Of a DNA stretch of 64,000 bases, positions 3,440 to 63,299 are shown piece after piece. Numbering within the stretch: position 1 is the stretch's first letter; each line of letters starts with the position of its first letter. Source of the stretch: a virus (lineage: Duplodnaviria > Heunggongvirae > Uroviricota > Caudoviricetes); the IMG/VR virus record IMGVR_UViG_2724679237_000005, positions 44,631 through 108,630 of that record, one strand, 5' to 3'. The position numbers and the translations under genes were made by a program. The notes beneath the pieces were generated by a model that was not told the DNA's origin, searched no databases, and saw only the letters and a program-made list of their open reading frames with translations.

Positions 3440-3494
3440 GTATTTTTCCTTTTGTGGTTAGTGTTTACTTATTTTGTTAGTTATGAATAGGCGA

Positions 3495-3920
3495 TCAATC
3501 TTCTTGTTTAGGGAAAAACTGTTCAATAACTCTGTCAACGGCTGTGTCTATATGGAGTAGATGCCACACAACCATATCTTTGCTCCCCATGCCTTGTGTG
3601 AATATCACGTCATACTTACGCCATGCGCAGTGGAACCAATATGCTGAGTCATCAATTGGTAAATCCTCTCCCGCCTCTTTGAAGTATTTCAGCAGCATTG
3701 CTTGCTCTGCCGTTGGCGTTGGGCCTATTTCCTGAGCGTACATACGGATAAATCGCTGCCAGTCTGTCTCGTCGGTGGTCGGATCTGGTGGATTCATTTC
3801 GGCGATAGCGTTTCGTAGCTGATGCGCCCAATCAGGTTCAGGAAAGCCTTTTGATACTTCATCATCAATAACATCCAGAGCCGCGTTTGCGGCATCGTAG
3901 AGTTTCTTAATTGCTGCCAT
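3495..3920 (-). CDS. hypothetical protein (141 aa)
   Basis: ORF in operon orientation; no recognisable domain. Confidence 0.5.
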   Translation of the reverse strand: MAAIKKLYDAANAALDVIDDEVSKGFPEPDWAHQLRNAIAEMNPPDPTTDETDWQRFIRMYAQEIGPTPTAEQAMLLKYFKEAGEDLPIDDSAYWFHCAWRKYDVIFTQGMGSKDMVVWHLLHIDTAVDRVIEQFFPKQED

Positions 3921-3983
3921 GTTTTACTTCTCCTTATAAATAGGAAAATAATCACCTTTGAAAAAAATAAAGCAAAGATATAT

Positions 3984-4250
3984 TCACTCCGATACAAGAC
4001 GTTTATATGCTTCAATATCTCGCCGTGCTTCACCGAGCTTCCTCCTTAGATCCATATTTTCCAATTCAAGTTTCTCCATGTCTTTTTGGTATCGATCGCG
4101 GTGTTCTTTCCATGCTTTTCGATACGCCTTCATGTATGTCGTATTAGCTTTTCTCTTTGCCTGACGAACAGCATGGTGGTTTTCTATAAACCAGTCAGGG
4201 TCGTTAAATGCGACCAACGCCAACCACTTCACCAATCCCTTTGTCTTCAC
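3984..4250 (-). CDS. hypothetical coiled-coil protein (88 aa)
   Basis: Charged heptad-like C-terminus (EKLELENMDLRRKLGEARRDIEAYKRL); overlaps the small lipoprotein ORF, so one of the two starts may be wrong. Confidence 0.35.
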   Translation of the reverse strand: MKTKGLVKWLALVAFNDPDWFIENHHAVRQAKRKANTTYMKAYRKAWKEHRDRYQKDMEKLELENMDLRRKLGEARRDIEAYKRLVSE

Positions 4251-4359
4251 CTAATTTGTTTACTTTGATGCCAACGTATCCAGGCTCCACGCGATCGCAG
4301 CCAGTAAGACCCATTGTGCAAATAGCCGCCAGAGCAACTGCAAGTAAACCTTTCTTCAT
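4204..4359 (-). CDS. small lipoprotein (52 aa), below ORF-track cutoff
   Basis: MKKGLLAVALAAICTMGLTGC: signal peptide with lipobox LTGC; ATG at complement 4357-4359. Confidence 0.3.
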   Translation of the reverse strand: MKKGLLAVALAAICTMGLTGCDRVEPGYVGIKVNKLGEDKGIGEVVGVGRI

Positions 4360-4563: not shown

Positions 4564-4655
4564 GTGTTTTCCTATGTGGTTGTTATGCGAAAATAATAAG
4601 TAAGTACTTATATATTTTCAAGAGATAAAAAAGGCGTCCTGTGGACGCCTTGTGT

Positions 4656-7002: not shown

Positions 7003-8031
7003 TTACAGAGAGTCCAGCTCTCTCAGTAGGTCATCCAGACCTTCATCTTCCGTCGCAGATGCGGTTGCTACAGATGTCGCTGCGACTGCTTCAGACTCTT
7101 TGACTGATACGGCAACGGCAGCGGAACTTGCCTCTGGTTTAAATTCAGTTTCAACGGCACGGAGGATTTCTTCATCAACCAGACTGGTTGGTTCAGAAGC
7201 CGGTGTGTGCGCGGTTGCTACAGCCGTCGCTCCTTCTGTATGACCAGTGACAGAGCCAAATCCAGGTAGTGCCGCAGCCGATGTTTTCGCGGTTGAGGAA
7301 ATTGCTGGTGCAGATGCTGCGGCAGTTGGTGCAGCGATGCCAATCAGACGACCCATAGTGCGAACTGTCGACAGAAGACGAGTTTCATCAGCCTGATTTG
7401 CGTATGCGATCAGATCATGCTGGGTGTTCCAGAATTTATCTTCGATATCGCCTTTGTAGACTTTACGCTTAGGCGAGACGTCATATTTGGTATCGCGACC
7501 AGAGCCAGTACGTTTAATCAGGAATGCGTAGCCTTCCTCTTTGCTCAGTGGATTGCCGATATCATCAGCGATGTCTTCGGTGATTGCTTTGCAGATATCA
7601 TCGAATACAGTAGACGGCAGCTCGATTAACTGGCATTTCTCAGCATCTGCGAAATCCTCACGAGCAGAAAGAATGCCGTTGACCAGGTAGCGAGGAGTGG
7701 CACGCATTTGACCGATGCGTTCTTCCATTGCTTTGTTACCCTTGTGACGAGCGCGACCTTCCATCACCATTTCGCATAGCTGACAAGCGCGACCGTGAGT
7801 ATGTTGCTCACAAATATAAGCGTTGGTTGCTTCTTTACCTTCCTCGTTCTGATACTTAACGTAGTGCATACCGAAAGTCTGGAAGAACTTACCGTTTGGG
7901 TCGTCTTTATTCGGGAAGATGCGGATATAGTTGACGCCGTCTTTTAAGCGAGTCAGATCAACGTTGTTACCACGTTTGGCGGCAATGTCTTCACGAGTTT
8001 TGTTAAGCAAATCAAGTAATGTCTTAGACAT
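7003..8031 (-). CDS. putative ssDNA-binding protein (gp32-like)
   Basis: Cys/His cluster CEQHTHGRACQLC suggestive of a zinc site, Ala/Ser-rich linker and acidic C-terminal tail EDEGLDDLLRELDSL; position between recombinase and polymerase genes. Confidence 0.4.
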   Translation of the reverse strand: MSKTLLDLLNKTREDIAAKRGNNVDLTRLKDGVNYIRIFPNKDDPNGKFFQTFGMHYVKYQNEEGKEATNAYICEQHTHGRACQLCEMVMEGRARHKGNKAMEERIGQMRATPRYLVNGILSAREDFADAEKCQLIELPSTVFDDICKAITEDIADDIGNPLSKEEGYAFLIKRTGSGRDTKYDVSPKRKVYKGDIEDKFWNTQHDLIAYANQADETRLLSTVRTMGRLIGIAAPTAAASAPAISSTAKTSAAALPGFGSVTGHTEGATAVATAHTPASEPTSLVDEEILRAVETEFKPEASSAAVAVSVKESEAVAATSVATASATEDEGLDDLLRELDSL

Positions 8032-8148
8032 GTGTTTCTCCTTGTTGTGATTTGGCCGATGGCGCTATGCGCGTTGGGCTTTCGTTCATTCGTGGCTCTT
8101 TCGAGCTGTTAAATGATAGATCAGTACTTACTTATTATCTATCAAAAA

Positions 8149-8705: not shown

Positions 8706-9875
8706 TCACGTCTTAATAGTTTCTGCTACGTCGGCTAATATCGCTTCTAGTCGTTCTCCCTCTTCAGGTCTGAAGTAAAGAATGTTGGGGTTAAACCCGT
8801 AAAAGACAGTAACGTCAAGGTCTGGAAGATACTCCTTCCTGCCGACCAAATCGGATGGCTTGTTTTTGTTGTTAAACAATGCCGTTGCCCGGCTGCCACA
8901 CGTCAGCACATAGGTCGGACGCACCAGATTGATCTCTTCACGTATAAAGTCGGTGAACTGGCCGATCTCGTCTTTGGTGTAGTCTTTTTCTTTGTCTTTA
9001 ACCTTCTTGCAAACGCCTGTGACATAGAGATCGCCCATGCGTAAATCTCCAGCCGTCAATAGCTTGGCCTTAAAGTCGTCGTATCCGTTCTCCATAAAGT
9101 AACCGGTTCGAGCATCATTGCCGTTCGCATTGTCCAGAATGATCATGATTTTCGGCTTAATACCAATGCTGGGGCGGATTAGTTCATCACCTAAGCCCAT
9201 TTCAGCCGCCATCCGCGTCATGAGTACGTTAATTTCAGCCGAACGTTTGGGGTTCATCTCAAACGAACGTGAGGCTTTAACTGCGTCTATGACAAGATTT
9301 CCCATCAATTCAGCCTGGTCGCGTAGGCGCTCTGGAGCAGTTGCTGGCAGACTACCTGGCTCGATGGATGCAAACGCCCCTACTTTTTGCAGCGATTCGC
9401 GCACTCGACTATTACAGGCACGTTTCTCGACAGCTTCTTCGAATTGCGCCAGTGACTCGAATTTGCCGCCAACTTTTTCTCGCGCTCTCATGATGGCTTG
9501 GCAGCCATTCTCAGAACACCCCTTCACAGCAGAGAATGGCGCATACAGCACCTGGCTGCCATCTTCAAGCGTGCGGATCTCGATTCGGTTAGATGACACG
9601 TTAACGTCTGGTGGCAATACGCGAATTCCATAGGTCAGCGCATCTTTAACCAGCCCTTGGTGTTTATCTTCGCCAAGAATAGTGAGAGCAGCAGCGAAAA
9701 ACTCTGCGGGATAATGAGTTTTCAACCACATAGATTGATAACTGATTAAGGAGTAAGCAACAGAGTGTGATTTGTTGAAGGCATACGCGCCGGATTTCTC
9801 AAACATATTCCAGATTTCTTCGGCTCGTTCGTGCGTCAGGCCATTGCTCTCTTCAACTACACTGGTAATTTTCAT
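8706..9875 (-). CDS. dnaE: DNA polymerase III alpha (DnaE), C-terminal fragment
   Basis: Contains the DnaE fingers signature AYAFNKSHSVAYSLISYQSMWLKTHYPAEFFAA; own ATG overlapping stop of HNH ORF. Confidence 0.8.
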   Translation of the reverse strand: MKITSVVEESNGLTHERAEEIWNMFEKSGAYAFNKSHSVAYSLISYQSMWLKTHYPAEFFAAALTILGEDKHQGLVKDALTYGIRVLPPDVNVSSNRIEIRTLEDGSQVLYAPFSAVKGCSENGCQAIMRAREKVGGKFESLAQFEEAVEKRACNSRVRESLQKVGAFASIEPGSLPATAPERLRDQAELMGNLVIDAVKASRSFEMNPKRSAEINVLMTRMAAEMGLGDELIRPSIGIKPKIMIILDNANGNDARTGYFMENGYDDFKAKLLTAGDLRMGDLYVTGVCKKVKDKEKDYTKDEIGQFTDFIREEINLVRPTYVLTCGSRATALFNNKNKPSDLVGRKEYLPDLDVTVFYGFNPNILYFRPEEGERLEAILADVAETIKT

Positions 9876-10606
9876 TCAGTCACCTCATCAATCTTCACGA
9901 ACTCATACCCATTGGAGGCCAGCCAGTCCCGCTGGCGCTCCCAGCTCCATACCTTTTCACGCATTTCGCTATGCAGGCGAATGTGGGCGTCTTCTGGAAG
10001 TGCCACCAGATTCCCAGGGGCGTTATCTACCGTATCGCGGTTAATATGGTGGACATGTTCATCGTCACGTAGCTCCCGACCGAGACGTTCTTTCGCTATC
10101 AACCGATGAACGTATTCGTATTGCGAAACGCCATTGTTACCAACCAGCTGCATCATGTAGCCGTTGGTTTTTACGATGATGCCATCTTTGTAGTTGTTCG
10201 CTTCTTCTCCGATCTTTCCGCGTTTGGCAGCCGCCAGCTTTTCCTTCGTCTCCGCGCGGATTGTTCTGCCGGTTAGCTTTTTCGAAACGGTGGCCACTCG
10301 CTCATCGATATCAGCACGCAGACCGGCATTCCACGAGGTTTTCCCATACATAGGGTTGCCAGTGCCAGTCCGGGCTTCGGAGAGTCGCTTCATACGTTCG
10401 TCATTATTTTTGTTTTTGCCACGATTCCAGGCTGGGGTAGCGGAGATCCGCGCGTTTCCGCGCCTGATCCCCCATTTGGCTAATAAGCGGTCAATATTTG
10501 CCTTGCTGCAACCAGCTTCGGCGGCAATGTCTTCTTTTCTCATCAGGTCAACCATGTAACGCTGACGTAACCATTCTTCTGTGATTTTGTACTTCGTACT
10601 CGGCAT
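9872..10606 (-). CDS. HNH homing endonuclease inserted within dnaE
   Basis: C-terminal HNH motif EHVHHINRDTVDNAPGNLVALPEDAHIRLH; N-terminal NUMOD-like stretches (GKTSWNAGL, RAETKEKLAAAKRG); sits between the two dnaE fragments. Confidence 0.8.
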   Translation of the reverse strand: MPSTKYKITEEWLRQRYMVDLMRKEDIAAEAGCSKANIDRLLAKWGIRRGNARISATPAWNRGKNKNNDERMKRLSEARTGTGNPMYGKTSWNAGLRADIDERVATVSKKLTGRTIRAETKEKLAAAKRGKIGEEANNYKDGIIVKTNGYMMQLVGNNGVSQYEYVHRLIAKERLGRELRDDEHVHHINRDTVDNAPGNLVALPEDAHIRLHSEMREKVWSWERQRDWLASNGYEFVKIDEVTE

Positions 10607-10654
10607 TTCTAAGACTCACTAAACAAATTGTTTTCTTATCTTATAAATTAATTC

Positions 10655-13018
10655 TCAAATATCGAAGCTCGTTATGTCGGCATTTATTGCCATTGCTTCG
10701 GCATAAGTGCGACGCTCACCATCAGCACAAAGTAGGCGTGCTGCTTTATGGATTTTTCTCGTAGAACCGTCATCCAGTGACACTGTCACCCAGCCTTCCT
10801 CCGCTCGCTTAATGAAGTCGCCGCCAATGGATTTCATTTTCTCCATATCTTTTTTCCCGATCGCTTTCCTGACCGAGTCTGCTTCCGCCATTGAGAACCC
10901 CGCCAAGATTCGCGTAGCAGCCATGATCTGTTCCTGATAAATCAGAACACCGTTTGTGTCGCGAGAGATGTCGTCCAGCATAGGGTGTAAGGAATGTGGA
11001 GCCATGAAGCCTTTGGCCACGGAGACATAGTCGTCCAACATGCCGGATTGAATCGGGCCTGGTCGGAAGAGTGCGGTCGTGGCGACAACGGTCTTGAAGC
11101 TCATTGGCTCGATGCCACCGCCCAGATCTTTAAGCAACTTACGCATGGGGCCGGACTCCAGCTGGAATACGCCCTGCGTGTACCCTGCAGCGAACCCATC
11201 CAGAACCTTGCGATCGTCCAGTGGGATAGCGTCGAGATTGATATCTTCACCTGTGTTCTCTTTTATGTAGCGTTTTGCACTATCGAGCAAATCGAGAGTT
11301 GCCAGGCCAAGCACGTCCAGCTTAATTAGGCCCATAGCCTCGCAGTAACGCTTGTCAAATGCGATACAACGCGCGTCACCACGTCGTTCAACCGGTGTAC
11401 GTTCTGTCAGAGGAACACCTGCTACGATCATCCCTGCCGCATGTCTACCAAAGCCACGCATAAGGCTTTGTAACTTGCAGGCTGCATTGAATGCATCAGG
11501 ATATTTTGTTGCGTATTTGTCGAGACTTGCCAGTTGTTCGCGCAGTTCTTCCAATGGAAGGCTATCATCCTCAGCGTTCTTCAGTTCTTTTGATACCGCC
11601 ATATCTGCGGACTCCACACCATAAATACGAGCGGTGTCACGTAGTGCAGAGGCTGCGCCCAGGTAGGTGAAGTTCGGAATGCCTGCAACGTAATCTTCGC
11701 CGTAGCGTTCATTCAGATACTCGATCACCTCATGGCGACGTGCCTGGCTGAAGTCCAAATCCGCATCTGGCAAGTCGAGACGCTCAGGGTTGATGAAACG
11801 CTCAAACAGAAGACCGTGACGGATTGGGTCGACGTTGGTTATGCCTATGCACCACGCCACCAGAGAACCGGCAGAGGAACCACGACCAGGCCCAACGGGA
11901 ATGCCAGTTTCACGACTATGATTCATCAGATCGCGCACCATCAGGAAGTAACCACAGAATCCCAGGCGAGTCAGCGTGTCCATTTCGTACTTTAGCCGCT
12001 CAACATAAACCCTGTTCTCAGAAGCAGGTGGTGTGTATCCAAACTCTTTTGTGGTAAGACGTTTACGCAGCCCTGCAACAGCCAGTTTCATCAGCGTTGC
12101 AGGTTCGTCGTCTGCCATCTTGGGCAGTGCTGGTGGCAATTCATGCCAGCGCCATGTGCAGGAATCGATAATGGTATCCTGCGTTGTTGAGGCCATTGCA
12201 GCTGTTACAGGCACATCCATGCGAACGGAGAAGGCTTTAAGCGCCTCAAGGAGATGGCGGCGACCATTGACGGCGTTATCTCGCTGGTGGGGGATACGCA
12301 GACGATGCGGCTGGTCGATTTTGATGTTGTTCGTAACCATGTGCGCAATGTCTTTAATGTCTGCATCGTCGATCGATTCGTAATAAGCGGGATAGAACGC
12401 CACTGGCTCTATTTTCAATGCGCTGGCGACTTTCATCGCCCGGACGTTAATCTGGTCGTAGAATGGGGTAGGGTGCGGATAAACCACACTATAGAAGTTG
12501 TCTTTTCCACCCGCTGTAATCAGTGTGCTTATGATTTTTGCAAAATCGTTGCGTTGGAACACGCTACCGATGTCGGAAGTAAGCAGGATGATGTTGCCTT
12601 TGGCATATGTAGAAACCAACTGTTCGAGCGAGAGACGCGGTACAAAGTAGAACTGTTCTCGTGTGTTGGCCGCCGTCATTAGTTCGCAGATGTCGCGATA
12701 TCCTTGCTCATTTTTAATTAGAGCGGTAAACGAGTAGTTACGTCCCCGCTCTAATGATTCCATACATCTCATAGATTCTTTAGCAAGTTTAGCCCGGTGC
12801 TCGTATGTGGGATCATCAACAATGTTTAGTTTCACACCACAAATAACCGCCATGTCGTCACCAGCGGCACGTTGTAGTGGAATAACGCTCGCAATATTCA
12901 TGCTATCTGCTGAAATTACAGCGGTGTAGCCAGCTTCTCTGGCAATCTTCACCGCGTTTTCTGCTTTTAGAGCCGACTCCCCAAGTGAGAAGTCAGTTCG
13001 AACCATCAGTGCCTTCAT
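10655..13018 (-). CDS. dnaE: DNA polymerase III alpha (DnaE), N-terminal fragment (PHP and polymerase core)
   Basis: Palm motif GYFLMVRDLMNHSRETGIPVGPGRGSSAGSLVAWCIGITNVDP and LFERFINPERLDLPDADLDF; ends just before the fingers FNKSHS motif, which is found in the downstream fragment. Confidence 0.85.
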   Translation of the reverse strand: MKALMVRTDFSLGESALKAENAVKIAREAGYTAVISADSMNIASVIPLQRAAGDDMAVICGVKLNIVDDPTYEHRAKLAKESMRCMESLERGRNYSFTALIKNEQGYRDICELMTAANTREQFYFVPRLSLEQLVSTYAKGNIILLTSDIGSVFQRNDFAKIISTLITAGGKDNFYSVVYPHPTPFYDQINVRAMKVASALKIEPVAFYPAYYESIDDADIKDIAHMVTNNIKIDQPHRLRIPHQRDNAVNGRRHLLEALKAFSVRMDVPVTAAMASTTQDTIIDSCTWRWHELPPALPKMADDEPATLMKLAVAGLRKRLTTKEFGYTPPASENRVYVERLKYEMDTLTRLGFCGYFLMVRDLMNHSRETGIPVGPGRGSSAGSLVAWCIGITNVDPIRHGLLFERFINPERLDLPDADLDFSQARRHEVIEYLNERYGEDYVAGIPNFTYLGAASALRDTARIYGVESADMAVSKELKNAEDDSLPLEELREQLASLDKYATKYPDAFNAACKLQSLMRGFGRHAAGMIVAGVPLTERTPVERRGDARCIAFDKRYCEAMGLIKLDVLGLATLDLLDSAKRYIKENTGEDINLDAIPLDDRKVLDGFAAGYTQGVFQLESGPMRKLLKDLGGGIEPMSFKTVVATTALFRPGPIQSGMLDDYVSVAKGFMAPHSLHPMLDDISRDTNGVLIYQEQIMAATRILAGFSMAEADSVRKAIGKKDMEKMKSIGGDFIKRAEEGWVTVSLDDGSTRKIHKAARLLCADGERRTYAEAMAINADITSFDI

Positions 13019-13202
13019 GTGTTTTTACCTTTCTGGTTTTTTTGATTTTGTCATTGGGGAAGCCTACGAACTTCCCATGCATCGAAATCGCAACTTCTTT
13101 TGCTGATTGGTGACAATCGGGCTTGTCTGGACACACCAGACAAGCCTTACCAGTTTCAGAAGCAGCGATAAGAGAGCCGAAACATCCTTTACGCACGATC
13201 AA
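12993..13202 (-). CDS. small Cys-rich hypothetical protein (69 aa)
   Basis: CLVCPDKPDC cluster; overlaps dnaE start by 25 nt so its start may be internal. Confidence 0.3.
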   Translation of the reverse strand: MIVRKGCFGSLIAASETGKACLVCPDKPDCHQSAKEVAISMHGKFVGFPNDKIKKTRKVKTHEGTDGSN

Positions 13203-14434
13203 CCAAATATTTTTTGAACAACTTCACGAGCCGCTTGTGCAGAAGCTGAAGGGAGTTTGTTAATGAAAGAACGCTCAATACCTGTCACAAAGTCGCCTCG
13301 CATCATTCCAATCTTGGCCGACAACAAAAGTTCACGAGGGCCAATTGGCTGACTGATAAGGTGTTCTTCGTATCCATCGCGAACGATACCGGCAAACTTA
13401 ACCATCTTTTCTGCGTATTCATCCACGATACCGGCATTTATCAACATGTTGATCTCTGCCTCTTTGCTCATGTATTTCACATTCGAAACGATGCCAAAAC
13501 GCGAAAAGTTCGCGGCGTTCTGGATGTTTGTACCCTGGTACAAGCCGGTTTCATCACCAGATCCGTTCGTGTTGCCAGTGCCAATGAAAGCAAACCGTTC
13601 ATGCGGAGTAATGCGACGCCATTCTGGAGTCGCCTCTTTGATGACCAACGCTTCACCTTCCAGCACTGGCTGATACACGCCAAGAATCTGTGGAAACGCA
13701 AAGTCGTATTCATCCGCGAGGTAAACCCAGCCATGCTTCATTGCGAGCGCAAGCAAGCCAGGTTCGAAATACGTAGAGCCATCACGCGCCAGAATTTGCC
13801 CCGTAACATGTGCCTCTTCCATTGATGCTGTATGTTGGGCACGGATCAACGGACGATTGAGCAAAGCACATAGCTGTGTAGGCAATGACGATTTGCCTGT
13901 TCCTGCATGACCCCACAAATAGCCAGGTATGCCAAGTTCAAGCATCATGAAAATATCTTTGATCAGTTCGAAGTCGCCATATACGTAGCCTTTCTTCACT
14001 TCGGGAACGAACTCTGGAAACGGCGTATTGACGTTGACGCTAACCATGAGCGGCGTCCCACGTTTTGTTCCGAGTTCTTCCACCGTTACGTCTAGCAGTT
14101 CGTGAGCTGCGACCAGATCTGTCTTGTACTCAACTGTGCCTGTGTAGCCTGGGCTACTGGTCACGCCAGATGATTTGGCCATTTCGCTTTTTTGCTCGGC
14201 ACGTTTAGCTTGAATTGCATCAAGTGCCTTTTTCGATAGCGTTGGCTCATCTGGAAACTGTGTTGTGTACATTTTCAGTACGGTGTCAGGATCGGCATCT
14301 TTTACTGACTCAGGAATGCCCTCGCAATTACCATTGGCTACATGGGACTTAAAATAGTGAAATGATTTTCCGCACCACTTGCAAACAAGGTAATCAGAAG
14401 GATTTTTTTCATTTTGCAGTGCAGTAGTCGTCAT
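13199..14434 (-). CDS. AAA+ ATPase, MoxR/CobS-like
   Basis: Walker A GHAGTGKS, Walker B LADEYDF; followed by a VWA-domain partner as in CobS/CobT pairs common in phages. Confidence 0.7.
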   Translation of the reverse strand: MTTTALQNEKNPSDYLVCKWCGKSFHYFKSHVANGNCEGIPESVKDADPDTVLKMYTTQFPDEPTLSKKALDAIQAKRAEQKSEMAKSSGVTSSPGYTGTVEYKTDLVAAHELLDVTVEELGTKRGTPLMVSVNVNTPFPEFVPEVKKGYVYGDFELIKDIFMMLELGIPGYLWGHAGTGKSSLPTQLCALLNRPLIRAQHTASMEEAHVTGQILARDGSTYFEPGLLALAMKHGWVYLADEYDFAFPQILGVYQPVLEGEALVIKEATPEWRRITPHERFAFIGTGNTNGSGDETGLYQGTNIQNAANFSRFGIVSNVKYMSKEAEINMLINAGIVDEYAEKMVKFAGIVRDGYEEHLISQPIGPRELLLSAKIGMMRGDFVTGIERSFINKLPSASAQAAREVVQKIFG

Positions 14435-14529
14435 GCGTTTTTCCTTTGTTTTCTAATGAGCGTTCAACTTCTTATATAAATATATCATTAACTATCGTAA
14501 GTGGTTACTTATCATTAAGGCTGTTTTGT

Positions 14530-16638
14530 TCACTTTAAAATGATACGAGATAGTTCAGTAACTACAGATGAACCAAGACTATCAACGCTCGTTACCAGGG
14601 CATGATTTGAGTAAAATCTCTCCGGTGCGTCAGTCATGATGCCAATTGCCATCAAATCAATGTCAGTCTGCGTTTCAATTTGTTTCGCAACCGAACGCAA
14701 ATGAGCGTCAAAACCTCTCCCAACAGCCCACGGCGCGCCATCACTCAGAACAAGCATGATCTTCCTGTCCTCCATGCGACCGGAAAATAACGATGCAAGG
14801 CTGGCTATGCTTTCACCATCCACGTTATTAAGAAGTGGGAATGTGTAGCCTACGCACCCCATACGTGAGCGAACTTCGCGAGAATTTACCTTTTCATTCC
14901 AATTTTTGATGATAGGTAGCATTAAAGATTCAAAGCGAGAGAACTCATACTTGACAGCCTTAAGTTCTCCTGCCGCCATATGACTACCAAATGTAGTGAA
15001 GCCGGTGATAATGTTGGGAACATTTATTCGATCAAGGGCATCGGCGATGGTATATGCACTTGCAAGAGCCAATTGTATCGTTATACCACTCATTGAACCT
15101 GATAAATCAATCACTTGTTGAACACAGGCGTTAACGGCTTTAGATTCTTCTTTTTTACGAAACACGCGATCATCATTCATTGCTAATCTGTAGATACTAG
15201 AACCATGAATGCGCCCCCGACGCTGGCCCGGTATAAACTGAACTCTGTTTCTGCTTGCTATTGCTCGCTCTAGGTCTTTTGCCAGCGTCGACGAAACACC
15301 TGACGAAAGATGCTTTTCAATATATTTGTCGAAGAGCTGGTTGCCTTCAGGAACGATGCGATAGCGGCTGATTGGATATCCTCCCAAATCAATATCGGAG
15401 AATGTTTTAATAAGCCGTTTGATATGGGCTTCTGCCTGATCAATCGAGCCGATGAAGTCGTATGAGCGATTGTATGGCCTGTATTCGCTTTTCGAGCTTT
15501 CTGTTAACTCGCTTTTAATCGTTTCGGATAGAGCATCTTCTGTCATGCCTCCGACTTCATCTTCTATGCTATCCAGCTCCTCTAAAGCCTCTTCCAGACT
15601 CATTTTTGACGGAGTTGGAATATCTGAAGAGCCGTCTTCTGTCGTTTTTCTTTTTTCGTGGTCAGCGGTTAATGATTCTGACGCCGCGTTATCAGAAGCA
15701 TCAGAATCTGATACCTCTTCATCATTTTCTGTATCATCGAATATTGTTTCTGATGATTCAGAATTATCTGAATCATCACTGTCGTTATTATCATGTTTGT
15801 GCTTACTGTGTGATTCTGGTTTGATAGATTTGTGATTATCTAACGCTGAGGGTGTCTCATAATCTTCGTTATCTTCATTGTTTTCTCCAGAGGCATCCGT
15901 CTGGTCAGCGTCTGAAGGATCGGAAGTTTTTCCCGGAGCTGACTCCTTACCTTTGCTTTCACTTTCAGTGTCTTTGAGGATCTTAGCTATGGTCGCAGCC
16001 ACCTTTACACAATCCTCGGTGCAAGACATGTTACGCACAGCCACATCGATACCATGTTCTTTTAATAATGAAATTGGTTTCTCAATGACAGGCCAGTATT
16101 CATCCATGAAATCTACGAACGGTGCTTGGCCATCCCAGGCTCTTACAACCGGACAGAGAAAGAAGTTTAGAAAAAGCGCGCGCTGATCTTTGCCACAATA
16201 AGCAATAGCCTCTGAAGCCTTTGGTTTAAAGACTTTTTCGATTATAAGGCGCTGAGTTGCCATCAGATTACGTCTTGTTCCGTTAAAGACCTGCCCCATT
16301 TTTCGCTCGATGAACACGTCTTCTAAGGCATTCCATAGCGACCAGGAAGGAACGCGTCCTTTTTCTCTCATTTTGTTGGACACACGAATATCGGTAAACA
16401 AAATGTGAGCAACCTCATGATCGAGAAATCCGCGCACAGCATTCATCAATGCCGGTGTTGCGTTATCCGGGATTGATGGGATGTTTACGAGAATTGGCTC
16501 TCCATCATCGTTATAGCGTACATAAGCGTCGTCCCCTCGTTCTGCAACAGGGATGTTTTTACCTGAAAGGAGAGCGACAACTCGTTTTACACTGTCACGG
16601 AAGTCCTGAACCTCTTTGATGGAACGTTTTTTAGACAT
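14530..16638 (-). CDS. von Willebrand factor A domain protein, CobT-like partner of the AAA+ ATPase
   Basis: MIDAS motif DLSGSMSG; long acidic Ser/Asp-rich low-complexity region. Confidence 0.65.
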   Translation of the reverse strand: MSKKRSIKEVQDFRDSVKRVVALLSGKNIPVAERGDDAYVRYNDDGEPILVNIPSIPDNATPALMNAVRGFLDHEVAHILFTDIRVSNKMREKGRVPSWSLWNALEDVFIERKMGQVFNGTRRNLMATQRLIIEKVFKPKASEAIAYCGKDQRALFLNFFLCPVVRAWDGQAPFVDFMDEYWPVIEKPISLLKEHGIDVAVRNMSCTEDCVKVAATIAKILKDTESESKGKESAPGKTSDPSDADQTDASGENNEDNEDYETPSALDNHKSIKPESHSKHKHDNNDSDDSDNSESSETIFDDTENDEEVSDSDASDNAASESLTADHEKRKTTEDGSSDIPTPSKMSLEEALEELDSIEDEVGGMTEDALSETIKSELTESSKSEYRPYNRSYDFIGSIDQAEAHIKRLIKTFSDIDLGGYPISRYRIVPEGNQLFDKYIEKHLSSGVSSTLAKDLERAIASRNRVQFIPGQRRGRIHGSSIYRLAMNDDRVFRKKEESKAVNACVQQVIDLSGSMSGITIQLALASAYTIADALDRINVPNIITGFTTFGSHMAAGELKAVKYEFSRFESLMLPIIKNWNEKVNSREVRSRMGCVGYTFPLLNNVDGESIASLASLFSGRMEDRKIMLVLSDGAPWAVGRGFDAHLRSVAKQIETQTDIDLMAIGIMTDAPERFYSNHALVTSVDSLGSSVVTELSRIILK

Positions 16639-21253: not shown

Positions 21254-21257
21254 AATT

Positions 21258-54231: not shown

Positions 54232-55014
54232 TTAATCTGCGGGGTTAATCGTTACTGACTTAGTTGCCTTCTTACCACCGCTATTGCTGGTGAAGGAGAT
54301 ATTTGTAGAACCCTGCGCCACACCACGTACCAGACCCGTTTGATCTACCGTGGCCTTTTCCTGGTCTTCAGATTCCCAAACACCGGTTTTGTCTGCGGCA
54401 TCAGCTGGAGTGATTTCGGCTGTCAGTTGCACAGTCTCCCCTGCTTTTACAGTTGGAGATTCCGGTTTGATCGACACGGTTTTTACCGGTTTAGGGCCGC
54501 TCATTCTTCCCAGAACGCCTTCGTCATCAGGGTATGCGCTGAACTGAACAGAGAACACACGAACATCATCAGACTGGTAAGTCATGGTGAAGTTACCTGC
54601 GGTCGCAGCTTTCGGGATGGTCAGAACGTAGTCGGTAGTGTCCTGCGGAGTCAGAACCAGCTCTTTGGCTACGTCGATCAGGTTGACACCCTGTGCGGAA
54701 GTGATGGTCACAGCGTTGTCGTCTTCGTTCAGAGTAGACCCCGGCATCAGATCGACCATATTTTTCAACACAGACTCGGCCAGCGGCGCAGTAATGGTAA
54801 TGTTACGACCCTGCACCAGCTCTGACATAATTGTCTGGCCGTGCTGGTCGACAGTGACTTTCAGCGTTTCAGTGGCTACTTCAACCTGAACACCACCTTT
54901 GGTGTAACCCAAATCCACACCACCAAACGACACCTTACAGGCACCAAGTTTGATGTTTTTTACATGGGTATTAGACATTGATGGAAAACTCCTTTTTCCG
55001 TTAATTCTACGCAT
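54232..55014 (-). CDS. major tail protein with C-terminal Ig-like (Big_2) domain
   Basis: C-terminal Big_2-like segment VKTVSIKPESPTVKAGETVQLTAEITPADA; position upstream of chaperones. Confidence 0.7.
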   Translation of the reverse strand: MRRINGKRSFPSMSNTHVKNIKLGACKVSFGGVDLGYTKGGVQVEVATETLKVTVDQHGQTIMSELVQGRNITITAPLAESVLKNMVDLMPGSTLNEDDNAVTITSAQGVNLIDVAKELVLTPQDTTDYVLTIPKAATAGNFTMTYQSDDVRVFSVQFSAYPDDEGVLGRMSGPKPVKTVSIKPESPTVKAGETVQLTAEITPADAADKTGVWESEDQEKATVDQTGLVRGVAQGSTNISFTSNSGGKKATKSVTINPAD

Positions 55015-55052
55015 TCATTGCGCTAATAGTAAGTATATACTTACCGATTAAC

Positions 55053-58558: not shown

Positions 58559-58573
58559 TTCTCGCTCCTACAA

Positions 58574-58600
58574 AAAGGGTGGGCGTATAGCCCACCCTTT
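58574..58600 (-). terminator. rho-independent terminator after putative major capsid gene
   Basis: AAAGGGTGGGC-TATAC-GCCCACCCTTT followed on minus strand by TTTTTG. Confidence 0.6.
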
Positions 58601-58631
58601 AACATAGATAATTACTTATCTACTGCACTGA

Positions 58632-60420: not shown

Positions 60421-60441
60421 AAAAATTCCTTTTGTTACTTA

Positions 60442-62016
60442 TCACTCGTTCTCTTGAGTAGATGAGTCCCCATTCCCTCGGGGTTGATCTTGCCCGCTTT
60501 CTTGGGCCGCACCACGATCATAAGTAAGTGCTGACTTATTTTCAAGGGTATTTAGATCATTTTTTGGAGGAAAATTCAAGAGATCTTTATCAAATTCCTT
60601 TTTCATCGCCTCAGTAATGTTCGGGAAAATCTTCTCAATAAGCATTTCCATCTGGTGACGACGTACAGAGTCCGGTGCCTGAAGTAATGACAGTTTCTCG
60701 GCAACAGAAAATTCATCAGTAAGGCCACGAATATCGAAACTTTCTGGATACGCAATTAAAGAGTGGTCTTCGTCCAGATCTACCCCCATCCATTTCGCAA
60801 CCAGTAGCATGATTTGGCGTTCAGCCCTTTCCAGACGCTCTGCTTTTGTGACAAGCAAGCTATTTACACGCTGGAAGTCATACATTTTTGCGGCACCAGA
60901 TGAATTATCGATTCCCTGTGCGTTGTCCTGCTTCGTTCGCTCACCAGCTACACCAACTGAATGGTAGATTTCGTTAATCACCGTCTTAATCGTAGTGATG
61001 ATCATCTGAGCTTGTTTCGGGTCTGGTGACAGATAAAACGGCTGGTTTCCACCTTCAGAATCGTAGGTGAAGACTCGCTTTGTGCCCATTTCAAGCACTT
61101 TAGTGTGGTTTTCATCACCAGGTAAAAGCGACTGTACCGGTATAGCCAACTGGCTAAATGTCTGATCCTGAATAATGGCATCAAGGTTTGACAGATAGTT
61201 TGCAACCGCACGATCAAGATAAGCGATATCATCGATCAACGATGGGCTGAAATACGGTGATTCACTTTCTCCAATACAATCAACAGGAAACACAGGAACT
61301 ACGCCGAGATTATGCTCACCGCTATCCTCTAAAATAACTTTTGCCTGACGGCGACCTGCTCCACCAGCGCCCTTCTTCACTTCCTCACGGAACAGATACC
61401 ACTCGTTTTGTGTCCACAGACGATAACGTTGGTATTCCTGACCTGTAGAAGTAAAAGGATCTGCGTCATCACGAGCGACTTCCACAATTAACGCCCACAA
61501 CATATTCCCGTCGTCGTCCCATGCCACATCCAGCATTTGCTGAGGTGAAATCCAGTAGGCGTAGGCGCGAGCATCTTTCTTTTTCTCGTCAGCTACTGAC
61601 TCAACATCACCACTCATCGTGCTATCGACAACAACCCATATGCGACCGTAAATAGACGACTGCAAATCAATAGCGGCCATAAATGAGTCAATAGAGGCAT
61701 TCTGGCGAGTCGCACGTTTCCAGAAATTGCGGATCTGCTCTGGTGCCTCTTCGATATTTCTATGAATGTCTTCTTTAAAGAGATATTTGTTGATGAGGTT
61801 TACCACCTCACGAGTGTGGTTGAAGCGATAAGCACGTTCAACTCGCTCCTTAAACTCCTGATCTCCCTCTTTAAAGTAACGAAAGATATTGTCTGTAAAC
61901 CAACCACGCCCGCCAGCGTAAGTGCTGGCGAGGAAGTCCCAATGTTCTTTTTTCTTTTCGTATTCCGGGTGGCGTCGCGCCACCAGATCCTTAATTTGTT
62001 TGTCGTTCAATTCCAT
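60442..62016 (-). CDS. portal protein
   Basis: 524 aa, immediately downstream of terminase large subunit. Confidence 0.7.
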   Translation of the reverse strand: MELNDKQIKDLVARRHPEYEKKKEHWDFLASTYAGGRGWFTDNIFRYFKEGDQEFKERVERAYRFNHTREVVNLINKYLFKEDIHRNIEEAPEQIRNFWKRATRQNASIDSFMAAIDLQSSIYGRIWVVVDSTMSGDVESVADEKKKDARAYAYWISPQQMLDVAWDDDGNMLWALIVEVARDDADPFTSTGQEYQRYRLWTQNEWYLFREEVKKGAGGAGRRQAKVILEDSGEHNLGVVPVFPVDCIGESESPYFSPSLIDDIAYLDRAVANYLSNLDAIIQDQTFSQLAIPVQSLLPGDENHTKVLEMGTKRVFTYDSEGGNQPFYLSPDPKQAQMIITTIKTVINEIYHSVGVAGERTKQDNAQGIDNSSGAAKMYDFQRVNSLLVTKAERLERAERQIMLLVAKWMGVDLDEDHSLIAYPESFDIRGLTDEFSVAEKLSLLQAPDSVRRHQMEMLIEKIFPNITEAMKKEFDKDLLNFPPKNDLNTLENKSALTYDRGAAQESGQDQPRGNGDSSTQENE

Positions 62017-62042
62017 TTGAATAACCTTAGATAATTACTTAC

Positions 62043-63299
62043 CTATCGAGAACCACCAAGAATAACACGGTTTTTGACTGGATACCTACGATGTACTGGA
62101 TAGCCCAATGCGTCTGCACTATGCTCAATGCCACCTGTCTTATCCATATCTCGTGTTCCAGGCTTGTAGATGACTTTTTCCAGTGAATCAATCAAATGCT
62201 TGCACTTCGGATCGATATACAGCCGGATATCTCCAGATGCGGTCATCAGCATTCGGTTAACAGCATTAACACGATCCGCAATTGGCGGGTGCTTTTTCGA
62301 ATAATCGACACGTAAGAATCCCTTCTCTTTGAATATGTCGACGTCAGACTCCCCGCGAGCATGTTGGCGATAAGCACCTGCCGGATCTGGAAATACCGTT
62401 ATCTGTGATTTCCAGCGCCAGAAGCGTCTCTCAAGCTCATCACAAACCTCTGCCGTGTTAGAGGAAAAGAGCACCAATTCATCAATTGCCCATAGCTCAC
62501 CATTTGGCTGAGGTTGCAAAATTACTGAAGACATCGGGTCAATGTTGAAGTCCTGCCCTACCCATATAGGCAACCGAGGGTTGAACTGAAGCGGTTTTAC
62601 ATGCACGTTACGATCGAACGGGTAGTAAACGCGCCCGGACATGTTCTCAAAGCTCGCCAGGTACTCCTGAGCGAACGATTTCGGGTCCATATCGTTCTTA
62701 GCAGCTTCAATTTCCGCCGTAGGTACAAACGGAGAATCGGCAGTTACAAACTGCCAGCTCTTCCACTGTCCCTTTCTTTGCAGCTCTACATTCTGGCCTA
62801 TAGTCCACAGTTTGTGAAATTCCGAGAAGCCTTTTGGCGTACCAATGATCAGTGCACCGCCGCGTGTCGATGAAAGAGTAGGTCGTAACACCTTGTACCA
62901 GGTGTCAGCCTTCATATCCTGAAATTCATCAAGCACTACAAAATGCAACGCTACGCCGCGCAGAGTGTCAGGCTTATCAGCACCTTTGAGGGCGATCTCC
63001 GAACCGTTCTTCAACACGATTGTCATCGTGGTGTCGTTCTTTTTCCTAACCCACTTACGAGGCAGAACTTCCTGTAGATCGTCCCACAAAATCTGGCGAG
63101 CCATCTGGTAAGTAGGAGCGACATACCAGACCCTTTGCTTTTTTTCCTTTGCCGCCGCACGAATAATAGTGGAGATCGACAACCGGGATTTTCCCCAGCG
63201 TCGACCAGCACAAACAACTTTAAATCGATGCGGAGACTGGAAGACTTTCATCTGTCCAGAATGCAGTTGCACAAGACTGAGCGAGGACGGGATTGCCAT
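62043..63299 (-). CDS. terminase large subunit
   Basis: Walker A VVCAGRRWGKS and Walker B-like VVLDEFQD in N-terminal ATPase domain; C-terminal nuclease-sized domain. Confidence 0.8.
   Translation of the reverse strand: MAIPSSLSLVQLHSGQMKVFQSPHRFKVVCAGRRWGKSRLSISTIIRAAAKEKKQRVWYVAPTYQMARQILWDDLQEVLPRKWVRKKNDTTMTIVLKNGSEIALKGADKPDTLRGVALHFVVLDEFQDMKADTWYKVLRPTLSSTRGGALIIGTPKGFSEFHKLWTIGQNVELQRKGQWKSWQFVTADSPFVPTAEIEAAKNDMDPKSFAQEYLASFENMSGRVYYPFDRNVHVKPLQFNPRLPIWVGQDFNIDPMSSVILQPQPNGELWAIDELVLFSSNTAEVCDELERRFWRWKSQITVFPDPAGAYRQHARGESDVDIFKEKGFLRVDYSKKHPPIADRVNAVNRMLMTASGDIRLYIDPKCKHLIDSLEKVIYKPGTRDMDKTGGIEHSADALGYPVHRRYPVKNRVILGGSR

Follow-up and report, generated by a model that had tools for sequence, protein, structure and literature searches.

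The window analysed here, a stretch of 64,000 nucleotides, is part of an SSU5/pHCM2-type phage-plasmid in which many genes are preceded by copies of one imperfect palindrome. We give a probability of roughly 0.55 to the reading that this palindrome is an operator dispersed over host-type lytic promoters, where a putative element-encoded dimeric protein, probably a repressor, would keep the lytic units silent. The observations behind this reading are the site itself, its symmetry, its conservation at the level of DNA, its restriction to one plasmid family, its overlap with the best σ70-like promoters in gene direction and, in a close relative, induction steps at the junctions that carry it.

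A palindrome at gene junctions of the window

The initial annotation had singled out ATAAGTA/TACTTAT as a recurrent intergenic motif unlikely to reflect chance, and the counts bear this out. ATAAGTA occurred 21 times on the two strands of the window, versus 5.57 ± 2.57 times in dinucleotide shuffles (at least 21 in 0 of 100 shuffles), and TAAGTA in gene orientation was the top intergenic-enriched 6-mer, with 18 intergenic versus 9 coding copies (p = 4e-13, on the basis of an intergenic share of 9% of the sequence). The heptamer forms one arm of an imperfect palindrome of 24-26 bp, TGATARGTAAGT|ACTTACYTATCA (the dyad), which has the half-site WRATARGTAAGT and a deeply conserved inner core, AGTAAGY|RCTTACT, and is composed of four AAGT-like subsites at a pitch of 4 bp. 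A 21-nt matrix returned 39 matches of at least 12 bits in the window versus 0.5 in Markov-2 random sequence, and a symmetric half-site model returned 16 dyads of at least 14 bits versus 0.1 expected; overall, the window holds 16-18 such dyads. Twelve of the 15 positions first listed proved to be genuine dyads (4596, 8124, 14503, 19196, 22172, 25708, 30971, 41631, 48543, 55025, 58611, and 62034), and the inverted pairs quoted at 4596-4611, 22172-22193, and 55025-55045 were correct. Position 3465 is a weak dyad, and 18717 and 60434 are isolated half-sites, the latter (TGATAAGTA) overlapping a stop codon. Absent from that list were dyads at 3124-3147, 36091-36114, and 60518-60541 and a core dyad at 17151-17174.

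In the head and tail half of the window, the dyad at 62025-62048 (CGATAGGTAAGTAATTATCTAAGG; 21.4 bits) lies in the 26-nt gap between terL and the portal gene, a gap which also holds a dyad in the ∼96%-identical relative Cyrano, in SSU5, in pJN2-26, and in all distant lineages. The dyad at 60518-60541 (25.4 bits) lies inside the 3' end of the portal gene and has orthologues at 3524 in Cyrano and 3541 in SSU5. Others stand right after the stop of the major capsid gene (58602-58625, 20.9 bits), where an intrinsic terminator follows (58597-58572; "class B"); upstream of a tail tube-like gene at 54232-55014 (55027-55050, 23.8 bits); between minor tail genes M and L (48534-48557, 22.2 bits), ahead of a GC hairpin (48526-48504); at the junction of the tail tip J and tail fibre genes (41616-41639, 24.9 bits), also ahead of a GC hairpin; and upstream of the holin/lysis cassette at 35707-36042 (36091-36114, 22.5 bits; in Cyrano, the orthologue at 26655 precedes the holin gene).

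The remaining half holds replication, tRNA, and switch genes. The dyad at 30960-30983 (27.9 bits; Cyrano orthologue at 31294) ends 10 nt short of the start codon of gene 30209-30958, the first of the helicase/primase block. Dyads also lie upstream of gene 24871-25653, the CYRAN_34 homologue (25693-25716, 22.0 bits); at the head of the unit with the four-tRNA cluster at 20771-21424 (22171-22194, 22.8 bits); upstream of the glutaredoxin gene (19183-19206, 28.6 bits); upstream of the gp32-like SSB gene at 7003-8031 (8114-8137, 28.8 bits); after an intrinsic terminator at 4651-4631 ("class A"; 4594-4617, 29.2 bits); and at gene 2945-3124, whose start codon stands at the end of the dyad (3124-3147, 23.2 bits). 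A 22-bp variant precedes the cobS-like gene at 13199-14434 (14494-14515; 18.3 and 16.1 bits with the 21-nt matrix; orthologues at 45260 in Cyrano and 45121 in SSU5). The core dyad at 17151-17174 (GGTAAGTGCTTACC) lies in the divergent region between the Xre and cro-like genes and is a conserved island amid diverged flanks in Cyrano and in Klebsiella pJN2-26 (17.2 bits there). Weak dyads precede gene 3164-3439 (3454-3475; 15.5 and 16.8 bits with the 21-nt matrix) and gene 24333-24815 (24816-24839; 14.3 bits, with one good arm, the upstream at 15.4 and the downstream at -1.0). Two members are uncertain: a weak dyad inside the cobT-like coding sequence (15822-15845, 15.2 bits; orthologues at 43930 in Cyrano and 43659 in SSU5) and a variant of the palindrome, ATAAGTAACTTAT, which a large AT-rich terminator hairpin carries in its loop (31080-31104; 14.8-16.8 bits with the 21-nt matrix).

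The motif was thus confirmed, as first proposed, in both modules, replication (early-type) and structural/lysis (late-type). A point against the operator reading is that one operator shared by early-type and late-type genes would not account for temporal control. The stated placement, 15-90 bp upstream of start codons, is roughly true and uninformative: the distance from dyad end to start codon in Cyrano spanned -1 to 159 nt, with 747 nt ahead of the tRNA cluster. Dyads had no preferred place within gaps (relative position 0.05-0.89), and the upstream stop was the nearer in 12 of 22.

Conservation as a DNA site

About 30 dyads each were found in E. coli, Salmonella, and Klebsiella relatives, at the same gene junctions. 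Cyrano has 34 dyad clusters and SSU5 has 30, and positions are kept there and in pJN2-26 while sequences differ in detail. Distant lineages, with portal proteins 51-62% identical and no nucleotide similarity, retain the core AGTAAGY|RCTTACT. Near-consensus sites occurred only on SSU5-type plasmids, in 241 of 5,426 complete E. coli genomes, and none of 1,270 places was on an E. coli chromosome. Because the sites are confined to such plasmids, the binder should be element-encoded.

The dyad might in principle have no function, as a compositional artefact or a small repeat spread through the genome. Its consensus is A/T-rich with an internal 4-bp periodicity, and it has stop codons in two of three frames on both strands, which by themselves confine it to intergenic DNA, so that the intergenic placement is partly forced. 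Against this, counts are ∼100-fold above random expectation, orthologous junctions retain the site between genera and in lineages without nucleotide similarity while its flanks diverge, and there are no flanking repeat or transposon features. The conservation data effectively refute this reading, to which we leave almost no probability.

Three functions had been offered for the motif: that it belongs to a promoter, binds a transcription factor, or directs RNA processing. The last would make the transcribed palindrome a hairpin in 5' leaders that might be processed by an RNase, affect stability, or act as a translational operator. Dyads do lie in transcribed leaders near ribosome-binding sites, often 0-20 nt away, and the phage-plasmid encodes a FljA-family protein, relatives of which act post-transcriptionally (PMC2652032). 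However, arm pairing (73.6%) was fully explained by column composition (73.4% in shuffles, of which 223 of 500 gave an equal or higher value), arm combinations at the degenerate R position were random (GC 20, AT 21, GU 15, and AC 18), and G.U was not favoured over A.C on the sense strand (88 versus 81, p = 0.64). The dyad also precedes the tRNA cluster, where translational control is irrelevant. Since each arm conserves its own sequence without covariation, we conclude that this symmetric palindrome is a DNA site for a dimeric protein rather than an RNA hairpin. The transcription-factor site is the best supported of the three proposals; the RNA-level reading is already disfavoured, and we consider it very improbable.

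Dyads on host-type promoters and induction in a relative

The proposal of a phage-specific promoter element held in part. Dyads do sit on promoters, and these look like host σ70 promoters with a varying −10 register and no phage-specific consensus. Thirteen of the 18 window dyads overlapped a top-0.5% σ70-like promoter in gene direction (∼24% expected). On the gene strand, the three best promoters, and 6 of the best 25, lay on dyads (2.4% expected, p = 2e-5), versus 1 of 25 on the other strand. The best σ70-type promoter of the window and first on the gene strand (60545 to 60517, TTGAAA-17-TATGAT) overlaps the dyad inside the portal gene and reads into the next head gene; the second, a near-consensus promoter (19245 to 19218, TTGATC-16-TATAAT), has the glutaredoxin dyad at about +5 to +28; and the third (4621 to 4593, TTGAAA-17-TATTAT) wholly contains the dyad at 4594-4617. 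Promoters at 3162 to 3134 (TTTACA-17-TAGTAT) and 55061 to 55032 (TTGAAT-18-TATACT) overlap the dyads at 3124-3147 and 55027-55050, and promoter-like sequences lie at 8141 to 8113 and 48558 to 48530 on the dyads at 8114-8137 and 48534-48557. Dyads 36091, 24816, 22171, and 58602 had no convincing σ70 promoter. The A/T-rich arms of the dyad resemble −10 hexamers, which is a source of part of the promoter overlap.

Expression was taken from published RNA-seq data for Cyrano under five conditions (PMC9928086, S1 Table), in which most values are near the detection floor and MB6 was taken as "induced" from the rise of the cro-like gene and some lytic genes. Genes after dyads were near background in uninduced cultures and tracked the cro-like gene across the five conditions. 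Steps averaged +0.54 at dyad junctions and -0.21 at the others (one-sided p = 0.014). Ranked by induction-specific step, the first three junctions in the genome all carry a dyad: 59 to 60 (+4.1 log2; equivalent of dyad 3124-3147), 55 to 56 (+3.9 log2; 4594-4617), and 11 to 12 (+3.1 log2; 55027-55050). At the most inducible junctions, the dyad covers the spacer or the −10 of the promoter, in three different registers. Junction 33 to 34 (equivalent of dyad 25693-25716) was up 2-3.4 log2 in all conditions. Several dyads (58602, 48534, and 41616) come after a stop codon and before a terminator or hairpin, a location that is odd for a promoter-operator, and the genes downstream of them step down, not up, as at Cyrano junction 5 to 6 (equivalent of dyad 58602-58625; down 3 log2 in MB6).

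The same promoters bear on whether the dyad is instead an activator box, at which a phage-encoded activator such as the MarR-like protein C123 would recruit host RNA polymerase to promoters lacking a good −35, as do P1 Lpa and T4 MotA. σ70-like promoters are depleted across the window as a whole, some dyads occupy tiny gaps inside late operons (62025), and the dyad core AAGT|ACTT resembles the Lpa box of P1 late promoters, AAGTnACTT, which likewise occurs in many copies before late operons. Activators need a fixed geometry, however, and neither a −35 nor a −10 was found at a fixed spacing from the dyad, the −10 lying anywhere between dyad positions -16 and +23. Good −35 and −10 hexamers are already present at the dyad junctions that are the most inducible, and several dyads lie directly before terminators. 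The 9-bp Lpa box also has one base at its centre and is followed, after exactly 4 nt, by a −10 hexamer, whereas AAGT|ACTT here has no central base, lies within a 24-26 bp dyad, and has no −10 in fixed register; neither tblastn nor hhalign detected an Lpa homologue.

Candidate binding proteins and comparable systems

Both the role of the binding protein as a repressor and its identity are inferred. The candidates, none of them proven, are an Xre repressor, a MarR-like winged-helix protein, a ribbon-helix-helix (RHH) protein, and ParB-like proteins. Leading among them, as a putative dyad-binding repressor, is the Xre-family helix-turn-helix (HTH) protein of 128 aa encoded at 17201-17587 on the plus strand (phrog_8, 6.6e-12; Pfam HTH_19, 0.0015, below cutoff). 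Lysogens express its Cyrano homologue, CYRAN_45, which was treated as the master repressor (PMC9928086). The Xre protein is present in 996 plasmids and is as widespread as the dyads, and E. coli and Klebsiella versions have a conserved recognition helix. The plus-strand promoter that reads into the Xre gene (17127 to 17154, TTTACA-16-TAATAT) has its predicted start site at the core dyad, 17151-17174. The Xre gene is missing from SSU5, though SSU5 retains well-matched dyads, and for this reason another conserved protein may be the binder.

C123 is conserved in every lineage and encoded immediately upstream of terS, as lpa is upstream of pacA in P1. It is predicted to fold as a winged helix (pLDDT 82; MepR/MarR/ZitR matches with TM 0.7-0.76), its recognition helix is conserved across all lineages and altered in the two lineages whose dyads alter, and its mRNA rises in MB6 along with the induced junction genes. 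These points, together with SSU5 having dyads and no Xre gene, favour C123 as an activator; MarR-type proteins are usually repressors. With the geometry of the promoters weighed in, we regard the activator box as a possible but distinctly weaker reading than the operator. Across lineages, the dyad core is conserved and the β-strand of the RHH-like protein is not. Small repressors of the MarR and RHH (Arc/Mnt/CopG) families, which act as dimers or tetramers, recognize pseudo-palindromes of 16-24 bp that consist of short subsites and overlap the −10 or −35, a likeness to the dyad; the two proteins here are assigned to these families by fold or sequence pattern alone.

Two conserved ParB_N proteins head a conserved operon which begins at one of the strongest dyads in every lineage. 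They could bind the dyads as loading or anchoring sites for global silencing or DNA organization, in the manner of KorB or Noc, in which case distance to promoters would be immaterial. ParB-family proteins bind 13-16 bp palindromes, and those used by KorB (RK2) and Noc (B. subtilis) are dispersed; the lack of a preferred gap position and the sites that make little sense for a promoter would fit. The KorA-KorB system of RK2/IncP is similarly plasmid-borne, with ∼12-30 palindromic operators dispersed over the backbone at variable promoter distance, many silenced operons, and ParB-family proteins, but its operator sequences are unrelated and the ParB-like genes here are at background level in lysogens. 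Moreover, the element's partition ATPase, ParA, is located elsewhere with its own small partner, and an architectural role does not require the strong strand-specific link of dyads with gene-direction σ70 promoters. We consider this reading unlikely.

The operator reading has its nearest counterparts in two phage repressor systems. Like the lambdoid CI/Cro pair (Xre-family), the element has an HTH repressor gene divergent from a small lytic-direction gene and a palindromic operator with a ∼14-bp core, one copy of which is at the repressor's own promoter. Unlike Cro, the small divergent protein does not look like an HTH protein, and lambdoid operators are clustered at OL and OR, with late genes reached via antitermination, whereas ∼30 dyads are dispersed here over the whole lytic genome. 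Phage P1 is likewise a plasmid-prophage with lytic operons scattered over ∼100 kb, in which copies of one C1 operator overlap σ70 promoters and directly control each operon, and the circuit includes expression of the repressor itself; the P1 record annotates C1 operators at ref, mat, ssb, c4, kilA-repL, and lpa. The C1 operators are asymmetric 17-mers, sometimes paired, whereas the dyad is symmetric and 24-26 bp long; its candidate repressor is an HTH protein of Xre type and no homologue of C1; and P1 has its late structural operons under Lpa-dependent promoters and outside C1 operator control, whereas the dyad is found before head, tail, and lysis genes as well.

We found no earlier description of the dyad for the SSU5-like plasmid family, a very common one; the logic of dispersed operators is already familiar, as phage P1 does likewise. 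As an operator, the dyad would be bound by a dimeric or dimer-of-dimers protein of the phage-plasmid's own, at ∼30 copies per ∼108-kb genome on or adjoining ordinary host σ70-type promoters that would read into replication, nucleotide metabolism, tRNA, lysis, head, and tail units. The bound protein would occlude the spacer, the −10, or the start site and so keep these units silent during plasmid life, and at the start site of the Xre gene's own promoter it would provide autoregulation. Once the repressor was inactivated, the dyad promoters would fire.

A palindromic site in the intergenic gaps

The heptamer ATAAGTA is present in 21 copies in the window against 5.6 expected, a count that 0 of 100 shuffles reached. 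In an unbiased k-mer test, TAAGTA in gene orientation was the top intergenic-enriched hexamer of the window, with 18 intergenic versus 9 coding copies where intergenic DNA is 9% of the sequence, confirming the proposal of the initial annotation that ATAAGTA/TACTTAT is a nonrandom, intergenic motif. Aligning the sites revealed conservation well beyond the heptamer, including an A at +9 in 14/14 sites, and an iterated matrix matched nearly all sites twice, once on each strand, at an offset of 3 nt. This makes the element an imperfect palindrome of 24 bp, which can be extended to 26 bp (TGATARGTAAGT|ACTTACYTATCA) and which we refer to as the dyad, naming each copy by its start in the window. A symmetric half-site model identified 16 dyads in the window and 86 in four genomes, compared with ∼0.1 expected per 64 kb of Markov-2 random sequence. 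Of the 15 positions first annotated, 12 proved to be true dyads, another is a weak one, and the remaining two are half-sites without a partner; dyads 3124, 36091, 60518, and 17151 had been left out.

The motif had also been described as lying 15 to 90 bp upstream of start codons. We give this spacing little weight, as the dyads showed no preferred place within intergenic gaps (relative position 0.05–0.89, with 12/22 nearer the upstream stop codon). The dyad consensus is interrupted by stop codons in two of its three reading frames on either strand, and it can therefore hardly exist inside genes. No flank positions are conserved beyond dyad positions 0 and 25.

Palindromes in intergenic DNA can also be RNA hairpins, and an RNA processing signal was among the functions originally suggested. 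We rejected this. Each arm of the dyad keeps its own sequence without covariation: arm combinations at the degenerate R position (GC 20, AT 21, GU 15, and AC 18) are as independence predicts, and the fraction of paired cells (73.6%) matches that in composition-preserving shuffles (73.4%; 223/500 shuffles at least as high), as does the covariation score (0.182 versus 0.174). Sense-strand G.U mismatches (88) and A.C mismatches (81) were taken as equal, the two arms are near-equivalent in information (13.2 versus 11.7 bits), and no Rfam families other than tRNAs were found. Because the arms do not covary and there is no G.U bias, we read the dyad as a DNA site whose signature is that of symmetric protein binding and not of a selected RNA hairpin.

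The window shares 96 to 97% identity with Escherichia phages CMS-2020a and Cyrano (pLF82) across most of its extent and ∼80% identity with Salmonella phage SSU5, and, judged by sequence, it is part of an SSU5/pHCM2-type phage-plasmid. Read with the Cyrano annotation as a guide, its minus strand encodes, in order, terS, terL, portal, head, tail, lysis, and partition genes; helicase/primase, ligase, a tRNA cluster, and then integrase, an Xre repressor, and a small divergent gene; and finally cobT/cobS-like genes, DnaE, UvsY, a gp32-like SSB, an exonuclease, and a RecA-like gene. At the left end lies repA, the gene for plasmid replication, which encodes a Rep3-type initiator (608–1822, plus strand), together with its iterons. 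The iteron ACCGCTGACAGCATAC, present in ∼10 copies at 690 to 700 and 1823 to 2346, flanks repA and is the second k-mer family by intergenic enrichment in the window; this region serves the phage-plasmid as its plasmid replication origin. Four tRNA genes (Asn, Tyr, Thr, and Ser; 20771–21424, minus strand) lie ∼750 nt downstream of the dyad at 22171 to 22194; ARAGORN called 4/4, and Rfam at the gathering threshold called three, leaving tRNA-Ser unreported. The DnaE (Pol III alpha) gene is split within 8706 to 13202 (minus strand), with residues 1 to 781 encoded at 13018 to 10676 and residues 778 to 1166 at 9881 to 8715, by a ∼0.8-kb insert carrying a 244-aa HNH/NUMOD3 homing endonuclease ORF (9872–10606); dnaE is uninterrupted in Cyrano and SSU5, and the insert is either an intron or a free-standing endonuclease that left a two-piece polymerase. 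Two plus-strand genes without dyads of their own break the lytic gene array, one for a Sel1-repeat protein (26423–27568) and one for a LEM-3-like GIY-YIG nuclease (31231–31998), and these are probably accessory or mobile insertions.

Predicted promoters and transcript steps at the dyads

We scored promoters with a weighted −35/−10 sigma70 model, so that all promoters described here are predictions. Of 18 dyads in the window, 13 overlap a gene-direction promoter in the top 0.5%, against an expectation of ∼24%. The three best gene-strand promoters of the 64 kb all sit on dyads: 60545→60517 (TTGAAA-17-TATGAT), 19245→19218 (TTGATC-16-TATAAT), and 4621→4593 (TTGAAA-17-TATTAT). Among the top 25 gene-strand predictions, six are on dyads (2.4% expected, p = 2e-5), compared with 1/25 on the opposite strand. 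The −10 of the overlapping promoters ranges between dyad positions −16 and +23. Covering the spacer, −10, or start site of directional host-type promoters in variable register, such a symmetric site has operator geometry, and we favor, with a probability of roughly 55%, the reading that the dyad would be a repressor operator at host-type lytic promoters. An activator box at the same promoters is disfavored because it would need a fixed register, and we consider it unlikely. The suggestion of a promoter element was partly right: dyads do coincide with the best sigma70-like promoters of the window, but no element stands at a fixed distance (−35 or −10) in the 50-nt flanks of 86 sites. Overall, the initial observation is confirmed and sharpened, in that the motif is a conserved, dispersed, palindromic putative protein-binding site tied to host-type promoters of lytic genes.

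We considered two further promoter arrangements. A T4-type late promoter (TATAAATA with the gp55 sigma), which has a −10-only consensus at a set distance from the start, was rejected, as the motif has the form of a dyad instead of one −10 box. The annotations of Cyrano, SSU5, and the Klebsiella phage-plasmid pJN2-26 list no sigma-like protein, and when ∼60 small or unknown proteins were scanned with Pfam, PHROG, and NCBIfam, neither a sigma factor nor an RNA polymerase nor any known late activator emerged. A directional −10 in the gene-proximal outer arm, seen in one viral lineage (L131), failed on 235 unique sites, in which TAnnnT at dyad position 20 occurred 87 times on the gene side and 113 times on the far side. 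Separately, sigma70-like promoters were markedly depleted relative to dinucleotide shuffles across positions 1 to 60000 on both strands (22 versus 32, 15 versus 36, and 8 versus 21 per 20-kb block), which suggests selection against spurious promoters in the element.

We took advantage of a published study of strain LF82, which provides per-gene RNA-seq for Cyrano in five conditions and whose authors reported 39-fold induction of Cyrano by ciprofloxacin (PMC9928086). In the values from uninduced cultures, Cyrano genes downstream of dyads were near background, and the well-expressed genes were the Xre repressor, toxin–antitoxin pairs, partition genes, and a few others. In 6-h macrophage samples, which we infer to be induced, expression rose for the cro-like and integrase genes and for part of the lytic gene set, and the induced genes tracked the cro-like gene across all five conditions. 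We compared expression steps over 98 co-directional gene junctions, and in these data, which come from a relative and include many values near the detection floor, the mean step was +0.54 at dyad junctions versus −0.21 at other junctions (one-sided p = 0.014), with only some dyad junctions responding. The top three induction-specific steps of the whole element were all at dyad junctions, between Cyrano genes 59→60 (+4.1 log2), 55→56 (+3.9), and 11→12 (+3.1). These correspond to window dyads 3124, 4594, and 55027, and at each a predicted sigma70 promoter overlaps the dyad. In uninduced cultures, ordinary terminators located in those gaps largely account for the step-downs at dyad junctions.

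Dyads and terminators were arranged in two ways. In class A gaps, the order is stop codon, terminator, dyad, and gene (for example, 4594); in class B gaps, it is stop codon, dyad, terminator or hairpin, and gene (for example, 58602, 48534, and 41616). A class B dyad, lying between the stop codon and the terminator, is unexplained by the operator model; such dyads might be orphan operators, roadblocks, or antisense promoters. The late-region dyads in 58572 to 58625, 48504 to 48557, and 41590 to 41639 are each directly followed by a GC-rich hairpin, and that after the major capsid gene is a clear intrinsic terminator. At 31040 to 31140, there is a large AT-rich hairpin or bidirectional terminator whose loop is a variant palindrome, ATAAGTAACTTAT, with a near-identical copy upstream of terS in Cyrano (108358–108378).

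Distribution of the dyad and candidate binding proteins

Cyrano, SSU5, and pJN2-26 carry 21 to 34 dyads each at the same gene junctions, with sequences that vary in detail and a consensus that is kept; by element, the counts are 16 to 18 in the window, 26 to 34 in Cyrano, 23 to 30 in SSU5, and 21 in pJN2-26. An IMG/VR pattern scan followed by a portal-based search recovered distant lineages, whose portal proteins are 51 to 62% identical and which have no nucleotide similarity to the window. These lineages have dyads at syntenic places, among them the UvsW|ParB divergent region and the tiny gap between terL and portal. All lineages retain the inner core AGTAAGY|RCTTACT, and the outer arms are A/T-rich and specific to each lineage. 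The outer AAGT/ACTT pair is retained in one low-GC lineage, in which the inner pair decays, and in another lineage the reverse is seen; the site therefore behaves as four AAGT-like subsites with a 4-bp pitch. Perfect dyads in five further viral contigs (L013, L030, L033, L100, and L115) were set aside as unrelated, as they have no neighboring gene in common, and they look like chance or simple-repeat palindromes.

Near-consensus dyads were found in 241 of 5,426 complete E. coli genomes, at 1,270 places in total, all on plasmids of ∼100 to 116 kb and none on a chromosome. They were also found in 835 PLSDB plasmids from Klebsiella, Escherichia, Enterobacter, Yersinia, Salmonella, and other genera. 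Yersinia pestis pMT1 is one of these plasmids, and others are Salmonella plasmids whose genus and size profile is that anticipated for pHCM2-like elements. With 0 chromosomal sites in the 5,426 E. coli genomes, a host transcription factor is unlikely, and because no host regulon carries the dyad, its binder should be encoded by the element itself. Distribution could not discriminate among candidates, since the dyads, the Xre protein, and C123, a MarR-like protein, all have the same genus profile.

Of four candidates, we tentatively placed the Xre protein (17201–17587, plus strand) first on parsimony. It matches phrog_8 "transcriptional regulator" (6.6e-12) and Pfam HTH_19 (0.0015, below the curated cutoff), its PLSDB homologues are annotated "XRE family transcriptional regulator," and its gene is expressed in lysogens. 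A core dyad (17151–17174) lies at the predicted start site of the gene's own promoter (17127→17154), as a conserved island in Klebsiella. The recognition helix YKN.N.LSLIK is kept between E. coli and Klebsiella in proteins that are only 57% identical overall, and the protein is as widespread as the dyads (996 plasmid records). SSU5 (NC_018843) is without the entire module that comprises the integrase, the Xre repressor, and the small divergent gene (window 16737–18685), and we had been concerned that the Xre protein could not be the binder if SSU5 has none. We withdrew this objection, as the module is core to the supergroup across those records and the lytic isolate SSU5 is the exception; it fits a repressor-deleted lytic derivative.

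Another candidate, C123, is an 88-aa protein encoded ∼140 nt past the right end of the window, just upstream of terS, with a modeled fold of the MarR-type winged helix. It is present in every lineage, and its helix differs in the two lineages whose dyads differ; it is poorly expressed in lysogens. A word-index protein search with C123 returned only relatives of at least 74% identity, all "hypothetical protein," and a viral fold search gave generic winged-helix matches only. A further candidate is an RHH-like protein, conserved in position and highly expressed in Cyrano lysogens, whose sequence, including the DNA-contacting strand, is not conserved. Its gene is directly downstream of uvsW in all lineages examined: in Cyrano at 103221 to 103499 (L004:3221–3499, minus strand) and in three other viral lineages at L132:845–1147, L200:379–684, and L136:1068–1505. 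The remaining candidate is a pair of ParB-N-domain proteins encoded outside the window, CYRAN_119 and CYRAN_120 (PF02195, 3e-13 and 1e-8), which heads a dyad-fronted operon and is conserved in all lineages; it is silent (at background) in lysogens.

The element also encodes a full-length FljA-family protein (PF03614, "repressor of phase-1 flagellin," E = 1e-80) outside the window, at Cyrano 100780 to 101301 (L004:780–1301, minus strand), which is conserved among Cyrano, SSU5, and pJN2-26 and shows moderate expression in lysogens. We demoted it to a distant outsider as a binder because FljA is reported to act on mRNA (PMC2652032). The gene may serve lysogenic conversion, with the flagellin mRNA of the host as its target.

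Known systems and the plasmid–lysis switch

The closest functional analogue of the putative regulon would be the C1 operators of P1, which are dispersed over a plasmid-prophage, stand as many copies of one operator before separate operons (here, 16–18 in the window), and overlap the sigma70 promoters of those operons (here, predicted promoters at 13/18 dyads). The dyad is symmetric, unlike the P1 operators, which are 17-mers without symmetry, and the candidate repressor here is of the Xre type, to which C1 has no relation. The resemblance is one of function and not of family membership, and the principle of a dispersed operator regulon in a plasmid-prophage, established in P1, is not new.

A P1 Lpa-dependent late promoter was also considered, using P1 boxes extracted from NC_005856. 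The P1 box, AAGTnACTT, shares the flavor of the dyad half-site, and the lpa–pacA synteny parallels that of C123 and terS. We rejected this reading because its three defining features failed. The P1 box is a 9-bp palindrome centered near −22, whereas here AAGT|ACTT lacks the central base and sits inside a 24- to 26-bp dyad, the AAGT-A-ACTT spacing being found only in the variant at 31092, where it is exactly that of the P1 box. The −10 is fixed 4 nt downstream of the P1 box, whereas no fixed register is kept here. Finally, neither a tblastn search of the window, Cyrano, SSU5, and pJN2-26 with P1 Lpa as the query (best E = 1) nor hhalign of the C123 alignment against Lpa (probability 0.15%) found an Lpa homologue.

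An Xre-family HTH gene with a palindromic putative operator at its own predicted promoter is like an Xre/CI-type repressor–operator pair. The ParB-N-domain proteins are a likeness to ParB/KorB-type global regulons; KorB-type and MarR/RHH-type operators are possible mechanistic relatives by analogy, and we regard a ParB-type reading of the dyad as very unlikely. Quite unlikely, too, is a supergroup-wide scheme in which one operator would wire ∼30 promoters (early-type replication, tRNAs, lysis, and late structural genes) to a single conserved non-Xre plasmid-style regulator, either the MarR-like winged helix near terS or the KorB-like ParB pair. If true, the largest enterobacterial phage-plasmid family would run lysis by a plasmid-type "central control" and not by an early-to-late phage cascade.

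We found no description of the dyad motif or of SSU5/pHCM2 promoters in the searchable literature, and nothing published there on control of the switch between plasmid life and lysis in SSU5-type elements. The SSU5-type group has been described as carrying resistance genes, and SSU5/pHCM2/pKpn/pMT1-type phage-plasmids are very common, as the E. coli genomes and PLSDB plasmids marked by dyads indicate. The dyad provides a simple sequence signature with which to recognize these elements and delimit their transcription units. With a defined putative operator, a map of ∼30 promoters, and a short list of candidates, the plasmid/lysis switch becomes testable, and regulation in a very common family of phage-plasmids is opened to experiment.
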